Positions 4,753-62,535 of a DNA stretch of 64,000 nt are shown piece after piece (position 1 is the first letter of the stretch; the number at the start of each line of letters is the position of its first letter). Below the pieces are notes generated by a model, which was not told where the DNA came from, made no database searches, and saw nothing but the letters and a program-made list of their open reading frames with translations. Where the stretch lies: IMG/VR virus record IMGVR_UViG_3300034095_002552, positions 1-64,000 of that record, one strand, 5' to 3'. The translations under genes were made by a program, and so were the position numbers. The DNA is from a virus.

Positions 4753-5340
4753 TCATTTTGGGCCTCTTTTTAATGAAACTGATTTAAGCTTCTCTTGATG
4801 ATTGTTTGGCTGCGTCTTTAAATGATGCATCATATTGTGAAGCTCTTTTGTAATTTCCGAAGCACTGTCTGCACACTTCTTTGTTGATTGAATCGAGATT
4901 GTCTTTCTGTCTTTGTTGTAAAAACCCTTAGAAACTAAGAAGCATTTTTCTTTATCGCTCCATGTAACTAATCCAGTCCACTCTCCATCATCCCAATTTC
5001 TTGAAGAAACAAGAAGTCTTAATGGCTTCTCGTCAAAAACATGTTTTGTATGAAATCCATGTTTTTTAAGACCAGCACTAACATACCCCAAAACCAGCTT
5101 TGCAAATCCATCCAAAGCATCATCCATGGTTGTACGATAATTTACACTAATGCTATATCTTGAAGTTTCAGCAGATTCTGTCAATTGACTATCAACATGT
5201 TCGTGAACTGATTTTAGATTACCTTTTAAATTTACCTTAAAATATTCAAGTGCAATTTTTAAAAAGTCCTCTCTATTGATAGACTTTAAATTTAAATTTT
5301 CTAAATCTTTTTCTTTCTTCCAGTCATTAATTGATTTCAT
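4753..5340 (-). CDS. hypothetical protein, possible internal head protein
   Basis: probable start 5340 (AGGTGG SD), N-terminus MKSINDWKKE. Confidence 0.6.
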   Translation of the reverse strand: MKSINDWKKEKDLENLNLKSINREDFLKIALEYFKVNLKGNLKSVHEHVDSQLTESAETSRYSISVNYRTTMDDALDGFAKLVLGYVSAGLKKHGFHTKHVFDEKPLRLLVSSRNWDDGEWTGLVTWSDKEKCFLVSKGFYNKDRKTISIQSTKKCADSASEITKELHNMMHHLKTQPNNHQEKLKSVSLKRGPK

Positions 5341-6985
5341 ATGTCCACCTTTTTTTGCCACAATCCCATATTCTTGCTAATCCTAATTCAAGACACCATT
5401 CTCTTTCTGTTGTATTTATAGGACAACCATTTTTATTTTTAGCTTGAGATTGTTTACTTATTCTTTTATTTGGTTTTTTATAATTAACATAGCTATAATC
5501 TGGTTTGAGTTCGCAATCCAAATTAAAACCTAATTGTTTATATACATTACCTAAACTCCAACGATTATCACTCCATGTAATTACTTTTTTGTAATTGTTA
5601 TTTTTAGCCCATTCTAAACACTTTTTAAAAAGCTTACTACTTCCTCCAACAATATTGAAATTTCTTTTAAAGCATAAACGATCTAAAGTCAGCAAGCTTT
5701 TATTTCTGTGATGCCTACCAAAAGACATAGAACCAACAAGATCATCTTCGTAAAATAAACCATAAAAAACAAGACCTAGATTGTTGCTTTCCTGCAAATG
5801 ATTAGAATCACAAAATTGTTTAAAATCTTTTTTAGACAATTCTTTTACATTACATTTTCTAGCATAAATCTTTATCTGTTCTTTTTTTAGAATAGACATC
5901 AAAATACCCTTGCATTTAATCTCTTGATGTTGCCACTCATCTTCAAATATCGTAATTAAACGGATACCTTTCTCTTGGCACTTTTTGTATTTTTCGTAAT
6001 GATATAATGATAATCTTGGAGATAAAGATAATTCGTTGTGCCAGAACAAACCGCAATATTCTATAGCGACATTAATATTTTTATCATACATATCTAATTC
6101 TTTTCCATCCATTACAGAATAATCTGGTTCAAAATTAAATCCTAATGAATTAATCCATGTCTTTATCTCTTCTTGTGTTTTTCCATAAATTTGATTTTTC
6201 TTTAGAAAAAGTGGATTTGGAACCCCATATTTATCCAAACATGTTTTTAAAAATCTTTTTTTAAATTCTTCTGTTTTAGAATAATTCGTATGACCATATC
6301 TAAGAATACAAGTTTCTTTGGCTTTCGTTCTATTTGATGGTAACTTAGATGTATGGTCAACGCCATAAAGTTCTAAAAAAAGTAGCCTTCGATTTATCAG
6401 ATATTCTTCTGTTTGAGTATAACTTTCTTTACCAAATTTATTTAATGATGTTTTTTTTCTTTTGTCTAATACATCTTTATTCAACATGGAACTTTCTTTT
6501 CCATATTTTTTTAAATTAGATTTTATAACTTTGCTATAAAAATCGCTATGCTTCGCATAATTATCAACACCATATCTTTCAATGCAGGTAGCCTTGTATC
6601 TTTCAAGTATTTCTTGATTTAAAAATAAAGATGTAACTCCATATTTTTTCAAAAGTGATTCGTTTCTCTTGTTTTTAAATTCTTCACTAGAAAAGTAATT
6701 CTCACATCCATGTTTTTCTAAATTTTTCCGCTTTCGAACAGCTATCACTTCCTTCATTTTCTCTTGATGGATTTTGCTTTTTTTTAAAAATTCATTTATT
6801 TCTATTTTTTTATTTTTTTTGCATGACTTTTGGTCACAACTATCTTTATCAATATTTTTATTGGATAGAATTCTACTTCGTTTGTTCCTTGGTAATTCCT
6901 TACCGCAATAATCACATTTAATCCAAATCATAGACTTTGTAGAATAATCCTCATAGGGCTTATCCAATTTTTCTTTTATGATCAT
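5327..6985 (-). mobile_element. free-standing Hef-like homing endonuclease gene with KYG repeats
   Basis: N-terminal CDYC, multiple (K/R)YGV repeats, ELDMY...AIEYCGLFWH nuclease motif, C-terminal RIWDCGKKRW; probable start MIIKEK at 6985. Confidence 0.7.
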
Positions 6986-6993
6986 TGATTTAA

Positions 6994-7863
6994 TTACCCC
7001 ATGCTTGGGCCAAGAACATCTCCAAAACGAGACAACAATTTTTCTTCCCATTCCTTCTTTTCTTCCAAGCCTTCTTGAAGAATTTGCTGTCCATCAAGTT
7101 GCACACCACCATTAGGGCCAGGAGGATTAGAAATTTTACTTCTAATTCTTCCTAAAATTATTTTTGAAAAAGCCAAAGCCCCTTCTTGCATTGCTTGAGT
7201 CACTTGTTTAAAGTCTGGCTTTTTTTGCAAATACCTAACTAAAACAGGATAAGACCTAAATGGAGTAGGGTAAACTTTTATATGGTTATAACCGCCTAAC
7301 CATTCCCATCCACCCTGCTGTCCAGATATACGATTATAAGTGTCTTCGTATTGCTTGTACAAGACCCACTCATTCATCTTTCCCCATACTGGAGTCTGTG
7401 GATTGATGCCACCAGCGATACTACCATATGCACCTGCACCCATATATTCCAATGGTATAACACCACCAAGGTCAGATGCAGAAAACGCATATTGTGCCGT
7501 TTCTCTGTAAGATACGGTTCTTATATATCCAACATCGTTAGGCATTTCGTAAACCGATTGCCCAGGGGTACTATTAAATGTATAGTACTGAAAGTACTCC
7601 ATAGGAGCATAATCTTCAATTATTTGCAATGCAAAGTCTATTGAATTGCTAATTTGCTGTTCGTCTAACTCTATTGTGATTACTGGTGCGCCTAGCATAG
7701 TAAGAACATATTCACGAATCTGTTCTCTGACTTTTGCACGATTTTTTCTTTGTCCAATTTTGACGAGTGGATCAGTTGGACCTAAGTCGCTACAACTAGT
7801 ACAAGCCAAGCAATTGTATTGTTCTTGTGTTGGGCGAGGAATATATAACATATTGTTGTTCAT
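6994..7863 (-). CDS. neck protein, T4 gp13-like
   Basis: LGAPVITIELDEQQI...ALQ and ILGRIRSK...GPNGGVQLDGQQILQEG motifs; probable start 7863. Confidence 0.8.
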   Translation of the reverse strand: MNNNMLYIPRPTQEQYNCLACTSCSDLGPTDPLVKIGQRKNRAKVREQIREYVLTMLGAPVITIELDEQQISNSIDFALQIIEDYAPMEYFQYYTFNSTPGQSVYEMPNDVGYIRTVSYRETAQYAFSASDLGGVIPLEYMGAGAYGSIAGGINPQTPVWGKMNEWVLYKQYEDTYNRISGQQGGWEWLGGYNHIKVYPTPFRSYPVLVRYLQKKPDFKQVTQAMQEGALAFSKIILGRIRSKISNPPGPNGGVQLDGQQILQEGLEEKKEWEEKLLSRFGDVLGPSMG

Positions 7864-40171: not shown

Positions 40172-40459
40172 TTATTTTTTGCTTTCTTTAGGATTAAATA
40201 ATTTTTTAAGTGCGTCCCAGACATTACTAGATTTAATTTTAGTTGCTGGTGGAGTTTGTGTTCCTCCAGCACCACCACCCATCGGAGGCCCACCCATTGG
40301 AGGTCCGCCCATTGGAGGAGGCCCACCCATTGGAGGTCCGCCCATTGGAGGAGGCCCACCCATTGGAGGAGATCCGCCAGCAGGAGGCCCACCAGCAGGT
40401 GGAGGTGCTGGTGCATCTTCATTTAATTTGAATTTAACATAATTAACAAATGTTCTCAT
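40172..40459 (-). CDS. Pro/Gly-rich protein with MGGPP repeats, possible internal head protein
   Basis: MRTFVNYVKFKLNE-D N-terminus followed by (M/A)GG(P/S)P(P) repeats. Confidence 0.6.
   Translation of the reverse strand: MRTFVNYVKFKLNEDAPAPPPAGGPPAGGSPPMGGPPPMGGPPMGGPPPMGGPPMGGPPMGGGAGGTQTPPATKIKSSNVWDALKKLFNPKESKK
40277..40412 (-). repeat. GC-rich 15/18 nt coding tandem repeat
   Basis: repeated cccattggagg(a)ggc/tccg units. Confidence 0.85.
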
Positions 40460-47446: not shown

Positions 47447-48937
47447 ATGGCAGATAATCAACTTTGGGCATGGGGAGAGGGAAGTGCAGGACAATTAGGA
47501 GATGGAACGGAAGTAAACAAATCGTCTCCTGTTCAAGTCTCTGGTTCCAACTCCAACTGGAGAAGCGTTTTTAGTGGTCTTTTTCATACTGTTGGCATCA
47601 AAAAAGACAACACCCTATGGACTTGGGGTGTCAATTATGCAGGACAATTAGGAAATGGAACCATCGACAATAGCTCGTTACCGATACAAATTGGAGAATC
47701 TAATTGGAGCCAGTCTTCATGTGGTGGTTTCCATACAATAGCAATAAAGACTGATGGAACGCTATGGTCTTGGGGCGAAGGTTCGTTTGGCGAACTCGGA
47801 GACGAAACAACAACAGGTAGATCTTCACCAGTACAAGTCGGCAACCAAACGACTTGGAAGCAAGTTTCGAGTGGTGTTTTTACCGTTTCAGCAATAAAGA
47901 CCGATGGAACGCTTTGGTCTTGGGGCGAAGGTCTTTCTGGACAAGTAGGGAACGGAGAAACAGGAGTATGGAGTTCGCCAGTACAAGTCGGCAACCAAAC
48001 GACTTGGAAGCAGGTTGCTAATGGCTATAATCACACCGCAGCAATAAAGACCGATGGCTCGTTATGGGCTTGGGGAGAGAATTACTTGGGTCGATTGGGA
48101 GATGGAACGACAGATGATAGATCATCTCCAGTACAGATTGGGAACGAAACAAACTGGAAGCAAGTAGATTGCGGAGGCACACATACGGCTGCGATAAAAA
48201 CGAACGGAACACTTTGGGCTTGGGGCGAAGGTTCAGATGGACAATTAGGAAATGGACAGACAAATTCTTTTTCTTCCCCGATACAGGTAGGAAACGGAAG
48301 CAATTGGTCGAAGGTTTCCTGCGGATCAGACTTTACCTGTGCTGTTAAGACCGACAAGACCATGTGGACTTGGGGAGAGAATTATAATGGTAAATTGGGA
48401 GATGGAACGACAGAAGACAAATCATCACCAGTCCAGATAAGTGGCGAAAAATATTGGGGAGATGTGGATTGTGGCTCTTACCACGCCATGGCTATAACTA
48501 GTAATCCTCCAGCAAGGTTCAATTTTGTACATCCGACTTATAAATTCGAAGTGGTTACATATACACCAGAAAGCCTAATAGCTCTGGCTCCTTATCCAGA
48601 CTCATTAGAGCATCTGATTTTGAACCTACAGGCTCAGGAAGTAGTAATCAACAACAAAAGTTACAGGCATGGAGATCAGTTCACGGAATTTGGTTCAAGA
48701 GCCATACGACTCAAACAATTGTATGTTGATTCCAGCAATCCCGTACTGAAAATAGTTTGTGACGCTGGTTACAGATTTGAGAATAACAGATGCGTTCTTG
48801 ATTGCCTTGAAAGCGAAACGGCATGCAGTGGCGTTTGTTCCGATCTGCTTACTGATAATGACAATTGCGGAGAGTGTGGTAATGTTTGTCCAGATGGATT
48901 TGCATGCACAAATGGAGTTTGTGCAACACCATCATAA
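47447..48937 (+). CDS. RCC1/BLIP-II repeat beta-propeller protein with Cys-rich C-terminus
   Basis: seven (I/V)KTDG.LW.WG.N/G..GQLG.G...SSPVQ repeats; C-terminal C.DL.TD.DNCG.CG..C....C..G.C. Confidence 0.9.
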   Translation: MADNQLWAWGEGSAGQLGDGTEVNKSSPVQVSGSNSNWRSVFSGLFHTVGIKKDNTLWTWGVNYAGQLGNGTIDNSSLPIQIGESNWSQSSCGGFHTIAIKTDGTLWSWGEGSFGELGDETTTGRSSPVQVGNQTTWKQVSSGVFTVSAIKTDGTLWSWGEGLSGQVGNGETGVWSSPVQVGNQTTWKQVANGYNHTAAIKTDGSLWAWGENYLGRLGDGTTDDRSSPVQIGNETNWKQVDCGGTHTAAIKTNGTLWAWGEGSDGQLGNGQTNSFSSPIQVGNGSNWSKVSCGSDFTCAVKTDKTMWTWGENYNGKLGDGTTEDKSSPVQISGEKYWGDVDCGSYHAMAITSNPPARFNFVHPTYKFEVVTYTPESLIALAPYPDSLEHLILNLQAQEVVINNKSYRHGDQFTEFGSRAIRLKQLYVDSSNPVLKIVCDAGYRFENNRCVLDCLESETACSGVCSDLLTDNDNCGECGNVCPDGFACTNGVCATPS

Positions 48938-58135: not shown

Positions 58136-58176
58136 AAAAAAAAAGGAATTACCTAAATCAAAGGTAATTCCCTTTT
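58136..58176 (-). terminator. intrinsic terminator after recA/uvsX
   Basis: ggaattacct/aggtaattcc stem with a long T-run on the minus strand. Confidence 0.75.
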
Positions 58177-58192: not shown

Positions 58193-59404
58193 TTATTCTA
58201 ATTCTTCGTCTATCACATCGTCATCATCTGAACCCAATACATCAGTTTCGATGACATCAGCACCAAGCTTAAAGTTCATTGCATCCTTAAAAGGCTCAAA
58301 ATAATCAACCAACTCCTGCTCAGATGTAGCATCCACCAAACTTGGATATTTAAGCAATATTTCAAGTGGCACTTCATTTTTATCAAGCGAAGCCTTGAAC
58401 TTTACTTCTTCTCCATTGGAAAATGCATCTGCGATGACAAAATTACCAGCACTTTTAGCCACAATTCTATTCGCATCAAGCAAACAAGACAATAAGCCAC
58501 TAACAGGATTTATTCCATGTTCAAAAAGCAATTGAATGTTTTCTGTTGAAATAAATGGCGTGTGAGTCTTATTCTTGACATTTTTAACACGAATGTTAAT
58601 TCCAAGAATCTTGGTTTTTTTTGCACTGATTTTATATTCTATCTTCTTCATTGTAGATGTTTCTAATCTACATGAAGCATAGAATGGTAAAGCGTTACCA
58701 CCGCCAGCAGTTGTGGTTGGATTGCCATAAAGAACACCTATCTTGGATCTTGTCTGATTCAAAATAACAACAGTGGCATCATTGGTTTCCATAACAGTAT
58801 TAAGCTTACGGAATTCTCTAGAACAAATCTTAGCCCGTTCACCTGGCTGTTCATTGCCACCCACAATGCGTTTAAAATCAGCTTTTGAGGCATTCTCTGG
58901 AAGCTTGACCTCTCTAAGCTCTCTAGCTGATGGACTCACGCCAATAGAATCGTAGACGATTGCAATAGGGCAGTCTTTTCTTTTCGAACGAACAAATTCG
59001 ATAGATTTATACATCTTCAAAAAAACATCTTCCAAACTCTGAGGAGTATGCCTCACAATTTTAGTAAGATCACAATGTGATGCCTTTTGAATAAATTCTT
59101 TATTAGCTGAATTTTCACAATCCTCAAGAATTGCAATTCCATCCTGTCTCTGACTTCCAAATAAAATATTTGTTCCTATCAATGATTTTGATGACGAAGA
59201 AGGACCATATATTTCAGTTAGCTTTCCGCCCGGAATACCACCACCCATAAACTTTCCACTACAAATATAATTTATCGCAAGATTCCCAGTATCAACAAAA
59301 TACTTCACACTATCAATCTTGGCAACAATATCGCCACCAGTTTGATTTGCTAAATCTTGAAAAAATGAATCATCATCGACCTTTCTTTTGGCCATGTTAA
59401 ACAC
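58193..59404 (-). CDS. RecA/UvsX-like recombinase
   Basis: VDTGNLAIN, GGIPGGKLTEIYGPSSSSKS, IVYDSI, ILNQTR, TAGGGNALPFYASCR, VKNK. Confidence 0.9.
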   Translation of the reverse strand: MFNMAKRKVDDDSFFQDLANQTGGDIVAKIDSVKYFVDTGNLAINYICSGKFMGGGIPGGKLTEIYGPSSSSKSLIGTNILFGSQRQDGIAILEDCENSANKEFIQKASHCDLTKIVRHTPQSLEDVFLKMYKSIEFVRSKRKDCPIAIVYDSIGVSPSARELREVKLPENASKADFKRIVGGNEQPGERAKICSREFRKLNTVMETNDATVVILNQTRSKIGVLYGNPTTTAGGGNALPFYASCRLETSTMKKIEYKISAKKTKILGINIRVKNVKNKTHTPFISTENIQLLFEHGINPVSGLLSCLLDANRIVAKSAGNFVIADAFSNGEEVKFKASLDKNEVPLEILLKYPSLVDATSEQELVDYFEPFKDAMNFKLGADVIETDVLGSDDDDVIDEELE

Positions 59405-59434
59405 CTCGGTAAAAATGTAATTATTTTTTTAAAA

Positions 59435-59465
59435 AAATAGGTGGAATCACTGACTCCACCTATTT
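59435..59465 (-). terminator. hairpin terminator after SSB gene
   Basis: aaataggtgga...tccacctattt inverted repeat with a T-run on the minus strand; coordinates approximate. Confidence 0.65.
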
Positions 59466-59477
59466 GAAGACAGGGAA

Positions 59478-60491
59478 TTAAATACCTTCTAATTCTTTCA
59501 AAAAGTCATCATCAGCAAGAGATGCAGAATCATCCGTTTTGGAAACTACCTTTGCAGTTTTCTTGACAGATAAAATTTCTTCATCAATAGTATCTGAACC
59601 AGAAATTACATTTGAAGAACTTAAGTTAGATCTAGAAGAAGATCCCGATGAATTACGAAATTCATCTAAAGAATCATCTTGTTGGCCTTCTACTATCATT
59701 CCGCAATGAACTCTCAAGGCATGCTTAATATCATCGCCAGATTTGATAATACGAAGAGACTGAAGGTCTTGTAAACTTGTTAGCCATTTTTCAAGCTCTT
59801 CTGAGGTGCCTGAAGAAGAAACTTCTTCAAACTTTGAAAAGTCATAGTTTGGATATTCTCTATTGCCACTCTTAACAACTTTTTTAACAAGTCTAAAATC
59901 ACGACCAGTTGTTGGATGTGTAATATCCCCTAATTCCTTTTCTCCAGCAGCCTCATCACCAAGAATTGCTCTCAAAATCTTAGCATGAACTTGTTTGCCA
60001 CATGAATAAATTTTTGGCCCTACATTTGTTCCTACTATAGACTTATTTTTAGGATCTACTTCCGATCTAACGATAACATTGTAATAATATCGTTCAACTG
60101 GCTTTAACTCCCTAGCACTGTTACGCATATCTTCTTGATCTTTGCCAGACAGTCCTTCAGATTTTTGCCATAAATCACTATAGTACTTACAAATAATGCA
60201 ATCTCCACGCCATTGTGGACCCCTATCAGTATCGGTAAGAGTTTTAGGACAATGGAATATTCTTTTCTGATTCGTAGTTGGATTATTTAAAGTGTGAATT
60301 CTTGTCGCACAATACAACTTTTGGCCTTTTCTCTTAGGCAAAAAACGCATCAAAACAAATCCATCACGGTCAGGAAGTCGTACATATTTTGCAAAGTACT
60401 CTTCGTTTTGACCCGTGTTGCTTTCTGAATTTACTCGTTTGGATTCTTTTTTTAACTCGTTAAGATCGAGTGGTTCGTAATCGATACCCAT
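59478..60491 (-). CDS. single-stranded DNA-binding protein, T4 gp32-like
   Basis: MRFLP, H..HCP..CIIC zinc ligands, RYYYNVIVR, GRDFRLVK, YPNYDFSKF, acidic tail DDDFLKELEGI; start 60491 with GCAGGTG SD. Confidence 0.88.
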   Translation of the reverse strand: MGIDYEPLDLNELKKESKRVNSESNTGQNEEYFAKYVRLPDRDGFVLMRFLPKRKGQKLYCATRIHTLNNPTTNQKRIFHCPKTLTDTDRGPQWRGDCIICKYYSDLWQKSEGLSGKDQEDMRNSARELKPVERYYYNVIVRSEVDPKNKSIVGTNVGPKIYSCGKQVHAKILRAILGDEAAGEKELGDITHPTTGRDFRLVKKVVKSGNREYPNYDFSKFEEVSSSGTSEELEKWLTSLQDLQSLRIIKSGDDIKHALRVHCGMIVEGQQDDSLDEFRNSSGSSSRSNLSSSNVISGSDTIDEEILSVKKTAKVVSKTDDSASLADDDFLKELEGI

Positions 60492-60512
60492 GATAGCACC
60501 TGCCTTTAAATG

Positions 60513-60628
60513 ATGGTTCGAGTAATGAATAATCACTACTCAATTAGTTAATGGTTCGAGCAATAAAACATTTATTGCCCAGTTAGTCAATGATTCGAGA
60601 AACAAACGATATGCTTCTCAGTTAGTCA
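60513..60628 (-). repeat. three tandem 38-39 nt hairpin units in the SSB 5' leader
   Basis: plus strand ATG(G/A)TTC-GAG[variable stem-loop]C(T/C)C-A(G/A)TTAGT(C/T)A x3. Confidence 0.85.
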
Positions 60629-60657
60629 TTTATAATCGTATCTATCATGTTGTGCAA
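60629..60657 (-). promoter_or_regulatory. sigma70-like promoter for the SSB gene
   Basis: TTGCAC-N17-TATAAA on the minus strand directly before the first repeat unit. Confidence 0.6.
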
Positions 60658-60673
60658 GATTAATTTTATAAAT

Positions 60674-61105
60674 TTATTTATTTTCGTAATCGATTACTAT
60701 TTGTGCATCAGGATCTTGAAATTTTTCCTGTGAATCGATGACACTTTTGTGCATGGCAGATAATTTATCCTGCAAGCTCATATTGCCTTCAGATTCCAAA
60801 TTCTCATTAATTTGTTTTCTTATGTCTTGCTCTTGATTGTATTGTTCTTCAAGAGCTTTTAAAATCTCTTGATTTTTCAATAATTGTTCTTTTATTTTTT
60901 CTGTTTTTTTTGCTTCTTGATCCAATTGCAACTCTCTATTGTTAACTATGGGTGTTTTTTTAGGACTAAGTGATTTTTCCAAAAGGTTTTGACGAACAAT
61001 TTCCCTTCGTTCTTTTCTTATAGCTTCCCTTCTAAGCAAAACCTTTGTATGTGATTTTTTTTCTCGTTCTTTTCTTTTCTTTGCAATTTTTTCATTTTTT
61101 TTCAT
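60674..61105 (-). CDS. hypothetical basic coiled-coil protein
   Basis: 143 aa, AGGAG SD. Confidence 0.7.
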   Translation of the reverse strand: MKKNEKIAKKRKEREKKSHTKVLLRREAIRKERREIVRQNLLEKSLSPKKTPIVNNRELQLDQEAKKTEKIKEQLLKNQEILKALEEQYNQEQDIRKQINENLESEGNMSLQDKLSAMHKSVIDSQEKFQDPDAQIVIDYENK

Positions 61106-61107
61106 AA

Positions 61108-61860
61108 CTATCTCCTAATGTTTGGCATGTTTTCTTGTGATGCGTTTCCCCAAAAAAGCTTTCCACCTTCTCTATCTTTTTGTGTCTCTGAAAAATTAAC
61201 TTCATTGTCACCAATGAGGCCAACTGGGGCTTGAATAAAATATTTGTCGCTAATTTTTATTTCCTTAGACATATCATCTATAATTGTATAAATCTCACCT
61301 TGAATAGAGCCAGATTTAGCATAAACTGGGTATTTTTTATCAACTGTTAGTTTATATCCTTTTGTCTTTACTTCATGTAGCATTGGCAATTCTGGGGAAA
61401 AAACAACTGTTGTGATTGGCTTTTTTGACCTTACCACAGTTTGCTTTTGAATTGCCAATTGCTCATGAGGATAAATTTCTCTTTTCTCTATTTGTTCATG
61501 AGGATAAAGTTCTATTTTCTCCACTTGTTCATGAGGATAAGTCGAATTTCCTACGCATGCTACAGACAAATCTTGAACCGAAAAACCCACAGAGTGATCA
61601 AATGTGAACTTTTTGTTTTTTATCACAACGCCACCATCAGATTCTCTAAAGCTAATTGGTTTTTTGCTAAGTTCAAATACTTCTACACTAGCGACAAATA
61701 TATCTCTTCGAGCAAGTTGCCCCATTACAACGGATGCAAGCTTTTCCAAAGGTACATCCTCGAATGGATCTCCAACCTTTTTTTTGATTGTTTTAACTTC
61801 ATCTTTATTGTAATTCCCATCAACTTTTTCGTGATAAGAATAAATTACTTCGTAGCCCAT
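61108..61860 (-). CDS. hypothetical protein with YPHEQ repeats
   Basis: 250 aa, GAGGA SD. Confidence 0.7.
   Translation of the reverse strand: MGYEVIYSYHEKVDGNYNKDEVKTIKKKVGDPFEDVPLEKLASVVMGQLARRDIFVASVEVFELSKKPISFRESDGGVVIKNKKFTFDHSVGFSVQDLSVACVGNSTYPHEQVEKIELYPHEQIEKREIYPHEQLAIQKQTVVRSKKPITTVVFSPELPMLHEVKTKGYKLTVDKKYPVYAKSGSIQGEIYTIIDDMSKEIKISDKYFIQAPVGLIGDNEVNFSETQKDREGGKLFWGNASQENMPNIRR
61459..61540 (-). repeat. 33 nt coding tandem repeat (YPHEQ x3)
   Basis: tcatgaggataa recurs every 33 nt. Confidence 0.85.
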
Positions 61861-61890
61861 AAATTCCTCATAATTTATTCTAATATAGTA

Positions 61891-62535
61891 TTATTTTTGT
61901 AAAATACCTGTGCCATATCTAGTATTGTAAATAATTGGTTCTTTTTCTACACTTTCTGCAAAAGCATAAAAGGCATTTTTCATTTTTTTCAAATCTTTTA
62001 TATACTCAACAACAATGATCCCGCCATCAGCCATATTCTTCCAAGAAATATCTAAATAATAAAGCAAATCATCATAAGAATTTTCATCAGTAATAAAAAA
62101 ACAATCCCACTTTTGGCTTGTTATCTTATCGTTTATTTCATCATCATGAATCGAACCATGATAAAAATCAAATTCTTTCTTGAAAGACTTTTTTACATTA
62201 TAAGAACCCATCCTTGGAGAAAAATATAGATTTTCATCTTTTTTTCTAAATGAAAAAAATATTTCTGTTTCTTTGCATGACATGAAAAAACATTTTTCCA
62301 AAAAACCAAGAGTAAAATTCCATGAAAAAACATTTTTTGGTTTTACAAATTTACCAAGATGATAATAAAACGGAGCATACATATAATCTCCATATGCTGG
62401 CGTTTTTCTTGAGTTTTCATCTATAAATTTACAATTTTGTAATAAGACCTTACCGTTTATAATCTTTTTATTTAAAAGAATTGATAATTCTTTTTGTATT
62501 GTTTCTATTCTAACCATAAAATAATATAGAAACAA
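61891..62535 (-). CDS. degenerate methyltransferase-fold protein (Methyltransf_24-like)
   Basis: KWDCFFIT...SYD...MADGGIIVVE resembles the C-terminal half of class I MTases, but motif I is not canonical. Confidence 0.45.
   Translation of the reverse strand: MFLYYFMVRIETIQKELSILLNKKIINGKVLLQNCKFIDENSRKTPAYGDYMYAPFYYHLGKFVKPKNVFSWNFTLGFLEKCFFMSCKETEIFFSFRKKDENLYFSPRMGSYNVKKSFKKEFDFYHGSIHDDEINDKITSQKWDCFFITDENSYDDLLYYLDISWKNMADGGIIVVEYIKDLKKMKNAFYAFAESVEKEPIIYNTRYGTGILQK

Follow-up and report, generated by a model that had tools for sequence, protein, structure and literature searches.

In bacteriophage T4, gp32 binds a 5′ pseudoknot in the gene 32 mRNA and spreads cooperatively from there along an A+U-rich, unstructured tract and into the ribosome-binding site (PMC3014915, PMC535899). 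This mRNA is processed just upstream of the pseudoknot and is the most stable T4 message. In RB69, gp32 represses its own mRNA by the same logic at a target that has diverged, and both pseudoknot and tract are missing from RB49 (PMC3014915, PMC535899). A T4 review has called for such regulation to be studied in diverse phages (PMC3014915). Proteins of the gp32 type bind any single strand, and their choice of their own mRNA is poorly understood beyond T4 and RB69.

Two further kinds of described element are relevant to the locus presented here. The E. coli ompA leader and the 5′ stem-loops of the B. subtilis type are 5′-terminal structures that stabilise the mRNAs carrying them. Antitoxin repeats of the ToxI type are tandem non-coding units of about 36–40 nt with structured cores.

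We analysed a leader formed by tandem hairpins in front of a gp32-family SSB gene, located in a window of 64,000 nucleotides (the whole stretch of DNA studied). The source record, 80 kb long and 31% in G+C, is a fragment of a lake-water virus from IMG/VR and covers only ~16% of the phage genome. Besides SSB, it encodes a tail sheath protein, a UvsW-like helicase, an SbcC-like nuclease subunit and ribonucleotide reductase; the phage is a large myovirus whose replication and recombination genes form a T4-like block. A blastn comparison of the locus with the GenBank phage collection gave no match.

The SSB gene and its transcription

The first-pass annotation had called the gene downstream of the array gp32-like, and profile searches bear this out. 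The ORF matches Pfam PF08804 (gp32; E 2.8e-10) as well as phrog_224, and a profile of SSB homologues matched the T4 and RB69 gp32 structures in the PDB (E 2e-8). The profile was needed to reach these structures, as the SSB sequence alone gave no match in a phmmer search of the PDB. At E ≤ 1e-30, 328 SSB homologues were collected, with P0003–P0005 being 96%, 75% and 74% identical. The relevant features, in the direction of transcription, are the following.

60653..60670, minus strand: conserved upstream element TATAAAATTAATCTTGCA, which includes a -35-like TTGCAC (60657-60652)
60629..60634, minus strand: -10-like TATAAA, 17 nt after TTGCAC; predicted transcription start at ~60622
60590..60628, minus strand: unit 1, with linker TGACTAACT, stem GAGAAGCA/TATCGTT/TGTTTCTC and 3′ flank GAATCAT
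60551..60589, minus strand: unit 2, with linker TGACTAACT, stem GGGCAATAAA/TGT/TTTATTGCTC and 3′ flank GAACCAT
60513..60550, minus strand: unit 3, with linker TAACTAATT, stem GAGTAGTGA/TTAT/TCATTACTC and 3′ flank GAACCAT
60492..60512, minus strand: last spacer CATTTAAAGGCAGGTGCTATC, 21 nt to the ATG at 60491, predicted to be mostly unpaired
59478..60491, minus strand: gp32-family SSB gene, 337 aa (Pfam, PHROG and structure profile)
59435..59465, minus strand: terminator-like hairpin, with A-run, 14-bp stem and T-run (TTTTT), -18.1 kcal/mol

On its 3′ side, the SSB gene is followed by the terminator-like hairpin (59465-59435), a UvsX-like recombinase gene, a second terminator and a gene for a sigma-70-family factor. 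On account of this hairpin, SSB can be regarded as a largely separate transcription unit; a stricter terminator scan did not list the hairpin, and one RNA contig spans it, which indicates some read-through. Strong hairpins with an A-run on one side and a T-run on the other lie both at 58140-58176, after the UvsX-like gene, and at 59435-59465, after SSB, and these are possibly bidirectional terminators that make each gene a unit of its own. On the 5′ side of SSB, a 143-aa ORF (60674-61105, minus strand) encodes a very basic, Lys/Glu-rich and coiled-coil-like product; no Pfam or PHROG family matched it, and its position 5′ of SSB is kept in relatives.

The promoter-like TTGCAC-N17-TATAAA (60657-60629) fails a scan with an E. 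coli-type consensus; its position is conserved in relatives, where TAnnnW is found at equal spacing. The predicted start lies 3 nt before hairpin 1. The element TTTTTTTATAAATTAATCTTGYA-N17-TAnnnW precedes SSB in L003, L004, L006, L021, L025 and L109, and in these phages TTTTTTTATAAATTAATCTTGYA occurs once per contig and only upstream of SSB (IMG/VR). This stretch of ~24 nt is conserved although the SSB proteins are only 57–71% identical; instead of representing a general class of promoters, it may serve this gene specifically, as an activator or UP-type site. At 31% G+C, the promoter motifs are too degenerate for a promoter class to be defined from them. Distant relatives carry another SSB-specific upstream motif, CTAAAGT-N16/17-GATATAA, behind which there is one hairpin of unrelated sequence and then a U/A/C-rich spacer. 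With the N17 spacing, five large records contain this motif at SSB genes only.

Promoter and array are bracketed by a perfect 12-nt direct repeat, TTCGTAATCGAT (plus strand, 60474-60485 and 60683-60694), which has an ATCGAT palindromic core. Both copies encode IDYE, one at the SSB N-terminus and the second where the upstream ORF ends. L068 retains the repeat and L067 has it in degraded form; it could be due to chance or be a recombination scar.

In four lake metatranscriptome runs, contigs of the type of L067, a close relative, cover the SSB ORF together with the hairpins. No RNA contig was found over 60708-61027 of the upstream ORF, an absence that speaks against simple carry-over of DNA, even if uncovered stretches are not evidence of absence. 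Three RNA contigs end at 60603, 60607 and 60615, i.e., inside hairpin 1 and 7–19 nt from the predicted start, and a fourth (X20) reaches 60695, ~75 nt further upstream; contigs as such reveal neither the strand nor the true ends of an RNA. The earlier proposal of a transcription start in the first unit is compatible with the RNA contigs, but one of them extends further upstream. Taken together, they hint weakly at such a start, with some longer RNA being made too.

Anatomy and pairing of the hairpin array

The array is composed of three tandem units of 38–39 nt (60628-60513, minus strand) situated between the promoter-like site and the SSB ATG, and the sequence reads as the first-pass annotation had described it, including the end of the last unit 21 nt before the AUG. 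Each unit consists of a 9-nt left linker, a hairpin and the flank GAAYCAT. The first hairpin (60619-60597) has 8 bp, the 7-nt loop TATCGTT and a folding energy of -9.7 kcal/mol; the second (60580-60558) has 10 bp, the 3-nt loop TGT and -9.8 kcal/mol; the third (60541-60520) has 9 bp, the 4-nt loop TTAT and -11.6 kcal/mol. Within the last spacer there is a Shine-Dalgarno-like GGCAGGTG (60504-60497), and this spacer, taken with the preceding GAACCAT, resembles a fourth linker (direct-repeat family D1 is similar to the linkers). In the direct-repeat families, agreement between the reference copies and the remaining ones is 67–79%. Linkers and last spacer are G-poor, predicted to be unpaired, and carry UUAAC, UUGAC and UUUAAA; at 14–16 nt each (single-stranded RNA tracts of 16, 16 and ~14 nt), they are short and interrupted by the hairpins.

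Folded as RNA, the minus strand gives exactly three hairpins with -41.9 kcal/mol and a z-score of -3.76 (none of 200 shuffles was as good), versus a z-score of -1.10 for the plus strand. Furthermore, each stem contains one internal G-U pair and a possible closing U-G pair, which are mismatches on the plus strand; the earlier suggestion that the G-U pairs point to the minus strand is in line with the folding energies. The three units can be aligned almost gap-free. Across the three units in three strains, 98.4% of the cells were paired, compared to 40–51% when the partner was slid by 1–3 columns, and four of the nine pairs changed on both sides. When the four units of the two-unit relatives were added, these values were 96.6% and 32–61%, with double changes in six of eight pairs.

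Linker and 3-bp helix base are identical between units at 19–20 of 22 positions (86–91%), whereas the stem interiors reach 8–9 of 17 (47–53%; Fisher p = 0.01–0.03). Taken together with the pairing values, this indicates that the stems drifted yet stayed paired while the linkers were held in sequence. The compensatory changes that had been noticed by eye among the diverged upper stems, along with the conserved linkers and stem base, can thus be counted among the units. Between strains, unit 2 of L067 shows a change from G-U to A-U and another from G-C to G-U, both with pairing kept, and unit 1 of L068 shows a change from G-U to G-C, plus one A-C mismatch in hairpin 1; such orthologous covariation is thin, with the triple array present outside the window in only two near-identical strains. 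The counts from units and strains show that selection maintains the hairpins as RNA structures of the coding strand.

An H-type pseudoknot is absent from the array: both the minimum-energy and the centroid folds consist of three plain hairpins, loop 1 has no complement of at least 5 nt downstream of the predicted start, and loops 2 and 3 have only 3–4 nt. Intrinsic terminators or attenuators were also discarded, since each stem is followed by GAAYCAU instead of a U-run and none was called in the terminator scan. A CRISPR-like array and leader-peptide ORFs were rejected on the anatomy of the array, as was a GTG at 60536, which extends the SSB frame from within hairpin 3 but lacks a Shine-Dalgarno sequence.

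The promoter spacer contains CATGATAG (60643-60650, minus strand), which is exactly complementary to CTATCATG (60489-60496), the segment spanning the SSB start codon. In a transcript from further upstream, a CATGATAG/CTATCATG helix would enclose the three hairpins and hide the AUG (cf. read-through control of the T4 e/soc type). In a self-versus-cross duplex control covering 35 leaders, this helix (60650-60643 against the AUG region) ranked 18 of 34 and was not significant for the window, and it is consequently not claimed here. Unusually good complementarity between upstream and Shine-Dalgarno sequences was seen in L014, L040, L046–L048 and L057.

With regard to the gene 32 operators of T4, T2 and RB69, the leader studied here is alike in that it belongs to a gp32-family SSB gene, has a structure near its predicted 5′ end followed by a G-poor tract, predicted to be open, into the ribosome-binding site, and provisionally concerns one gene only (PMC535899; PMC3014915). 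However, it has no pseudoknot, no sequence similarity to them and no Rfam match, and consists of tandem simple hairpins (one to three across relatives) that split the tract into conserved linkers of ~16 nt. In T4, the tract is ~40 nt long with UUAA(A) repeats, whereas those of the window have 14–16 nt and are separated by hairpins. As it differs in both structure and sequence, we do not file the array as a member of the T4 gene 32 operator. It is a structured SSB-gene leader which differs from the known ones by its hairpin-array form. The gene 43 operator of T4 and RB69, used for autogenous repression, likewise places a simple hairpin ahead of the ribosome-binding site in a replication gene, but it depends on a conserved loop sequence, whereas in the window the loops (TATCGTT, TGT, TTAT) vary and the linkers and helix base are conserved (PMC3014915).

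Distribution among related SSB leaders

A protein-seeded scan of IMG/VR yielded 64 SSB loci with 36–71% identity, and a DNA scan of JGI metagenomes added two lake relatives (L067 and L068, ~96% identical), both with the same three units. In a sister group consisting of L025, whose SSB is ~59% identical, and L109, two tandem hairpins with the same CTCGAAT flank were found. Their hairpin is homologous to that of unit 1 (3′ arm plus flank, TGTTTCTCGAAT versus TGTGTCTCGAAT), with several compatible or compensatory differences, and the two units are alike within L025 and likewise within L109. A single hairpin occupies the same place in L021, L003, L004 and L006; between L004 and L006, an A-U pair is replaced by G-C in a double change, and the spacer after the hairpin of L021, AAATTGACTACTAAC, resembles the linker of the window. 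More generally, most of the ~35 distinct leaders have a hairpin a few nt after the -10, a U/A/C-rich spacer and then the Shine-Dalgarno sequence, and in most of the other relatives this is a single hairpin whose sequence is unrelated to that of the window.

The modular architecture proposed earlier is thus reflected in relatives with one, two or three units. These relatives, together with the spacer likeness of L021, make the array look like an amplified module of hairpin plus spacer; judged from these comparisons, it looks like an expanded form of the one-hairpin leader of the relatives. As side observations, L039 has two tandem hairpins of unrelated sequence, and L014–L064 carry, in the last 40 nt before the SSB start, a U-rich UUAACUUUU(A)AC or ACUUUUUAC just before the Shine-Dalgarno sequence. 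We take the former to resemble the epsilon translational enhancer of T7 gene 10.

In order to delimit the distribution of the unit, a covariance model of it (R1) was searched against several sets, and it matched only SSB leaders, namely those of the window, L067, L068, L025 and L109. Hence the absence of a similar leader from related phages, which had been named as a refuting outcome, did not occur. No other match to R1 was obtained in the 80-kb record, in the records holding L025 and L109, in 36 further SSB loci, or in four loci that a DNA pattern scan had picked from the GTDB genomes. The same was true of 674 kb of unrelated viral DNA employed as a negative control, which consisted of chance matches to the 14-nt L025-type linker pattern. 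The exact linker pattern itself was not found in IMG/VR, gave chance matches only in GTDB genomes, and gave two true relatives plus two chance matches in the JGI metagenomes. Provisionally, therefore, the unit appears to be confined to SSB leaders, a specificity to be read against the ~16% of the genome in hand. An Rfam scan of 59000-62000, with E up to 10, returned only chance matches, in line with the first-pass view that this is not a described RNA family. Clusters of AGGC(A/T) repeats are absent from the 80-kb record.

Possible roles of the array

The array probably controls the amount of SSB. Our best reading, to which we assign a probability of roughly 0.4, is that of a modular cis-acting leader that would protect the 5′ end and offer repeated sites for cooperative SSB binding, giving self-repression as in T4 without a pseudoknot. 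In this reading, the array would be the transcribed 5′ leader of an essentially monocistronic SSB mRNA, built from a module of an 8–10-bp hairpin plus a G-poor single-stranded spacer of ~16 nt, in three copies here and one in relatives. The promoter-proximal hairpin would cap the 5′ end and lengthen the life of the mRNA, and the linkers, held open between stems of different sequence, would act as loading sites for the cooperative binding of free SSB. At 21 nt before the AUG, the last linker would continue into the ribosome-binding site, and for this reason excess SSB would be expected to shut off its own translation, as does T4 gp32, with the hairpin array in the place of the pseudoknot.

This reading is suggested by the T4 layout kept in the family, that is, structure, open tract and ribosome-binding site, and a recognition role is favoured over a purely structural one by the gene specificity and the conservation of the linkers. 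The probability was held at this level in view of the low sequence specificity of gp32, the short and interrupted tracts and the absence of a pseudoknot; strict conservation of the linkers is not obviously needed for binding by a protein of low specificity.

A more elaborate form of the same idea, which we consider rather improbable, is an expandable multi-site RNA operator, in which each hairpin plus linker would be one binding unit for SSB or another partner, the number of modules (one, two or three) would set the repression threshold, and the stems would differ so as to fold independently. If true, such an operator would be a natural, countable design principle by which replication proteins regulate themselves, differing from the pseudoknot solution of T4. 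In any case, the leader offers natural versions of one element with one, two and three modules, a clear structure and conserved linkers.

The main rival, a tentative explanation nearly as likely as self-repression by SSB, is a constitutive stabiliser or translation enhancer without feedback. Here, the hairpins would block 5′-end-dependent or 5′-to-3′ decay, and the A/U/C-rich linkers would be standby or enhancer sites for the ribosome (S1), giving the very high output that SSB needs. The first hairpin begins ~3 nt from the predicted transcription start, the stems have no U-run and hence are not terminators, and relatives generally have a leader hairpin just after the -10 despite wholly different sequences, which speaks for a structural rather than a recognition role. 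The UUAACUUUU(A)AC of the distant relatives before the Shine-Dalgarno sequence, presumably epsilon-like, would fit an enhancer. The leader shares with known 5′-terminal stem-loop stabilisers, to which the processed T4 gene 32 leader also belongs, a hairpin a few nt from the predicted 5′ end, the lack of a U-run and a message that must be abundant, and the T4 gene 32 mRNA is exceptionally stable (PMC3014915). However, the window has three hairpins with sequence-conserved linkers behind a 5′ end that is a predicted one, and a single terminal hairpin should suffice for protection; moreover, both the contrast between the conserved linker and helix base and the drifting stems and the confinement to SSB would be left unexplained. 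If the array were only a stabiliser, it would still serve as a clean RNA motif, so far uncatalogued, in the annotation of uncultured jumbo phages from lakes.

Unlikely is a set of repeated sites for another trans-acting factor, either an RNA-binding regulator of phage or host origin or a processing endonuclease, recognising CUCGAAYCAUURACUAAYUGRG. Helix base and linker indeed form a defined conserved sequence of 22 nt at a fixed spacing of 38–39 nt, and the three RNA contigs that end in unit 1 could equally mark a processing site. Against this, the 80-kb record holds no other copy of the motif, whereas global regulators, T4 RegA and RegB among them, act on many targets (PMC3014915). A candidate regulator was not found, and the basic ORF upstream (60674-61105) is without a family match.

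Quite improbable, in our view, is that the extra copies arose by neutral slippage duplication, with only one hairpin mattering and the copy number being meaningless. The variation between one, two and three copies among lineages would agree with this, as would the likeness of the paired units within L025 and within L109, which is that expected after recent duplication or conversion. In the window, however, the stems are ~50% identical yet fully paired and the linkers 86–91% identical, whereas neutral copies would decay, and the array is intact in two further strains.

A DNA-level element (iterons, operator sites for a DNA-binding protein, or an origin) is suggested by three direct repeats of the conserved 22-mer next to a promoter in a replication and recombination block, but we regard it as very improbable. 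The pairing is strand-asymmetric, with G-U pairs that become A-C mismatches on the other strand; the variable cores are self-complementary and covary as hairpins, which iterons do not need; the spacing of 38–39 bp is not a whole number of helical turns; and the array is present in RNA libraries.

Finally, a trans-acting repeat RNA cut into units, resembling a decoy or an antitoxin of type III (ToxI), is scarcely credible: tandem units of ~39 nt with conserved junctions do recall ToxI in size and layout, but they are only ~70% identical rather than near-identical, the gene that follows encodes SSB and not a ToxN/AbiQ-type nuclease toxin, and the array, as part of an mRNA leader, sits directly on the SSB ribosome-binding region.

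Other repeats and genes were observed elsewhere in the window. These include a gene for an RCC1-repeat protein with 150-nt tandem repeats (47447-48937), a 33-nt tandem repeat array in a small ORF (40275-40399; consensus GGAGGCCCACCCATTGGAGGTCCGCCCATTGGA) and an HNH or homing-endonuclease-like gene of 574 aa (5327-7051).
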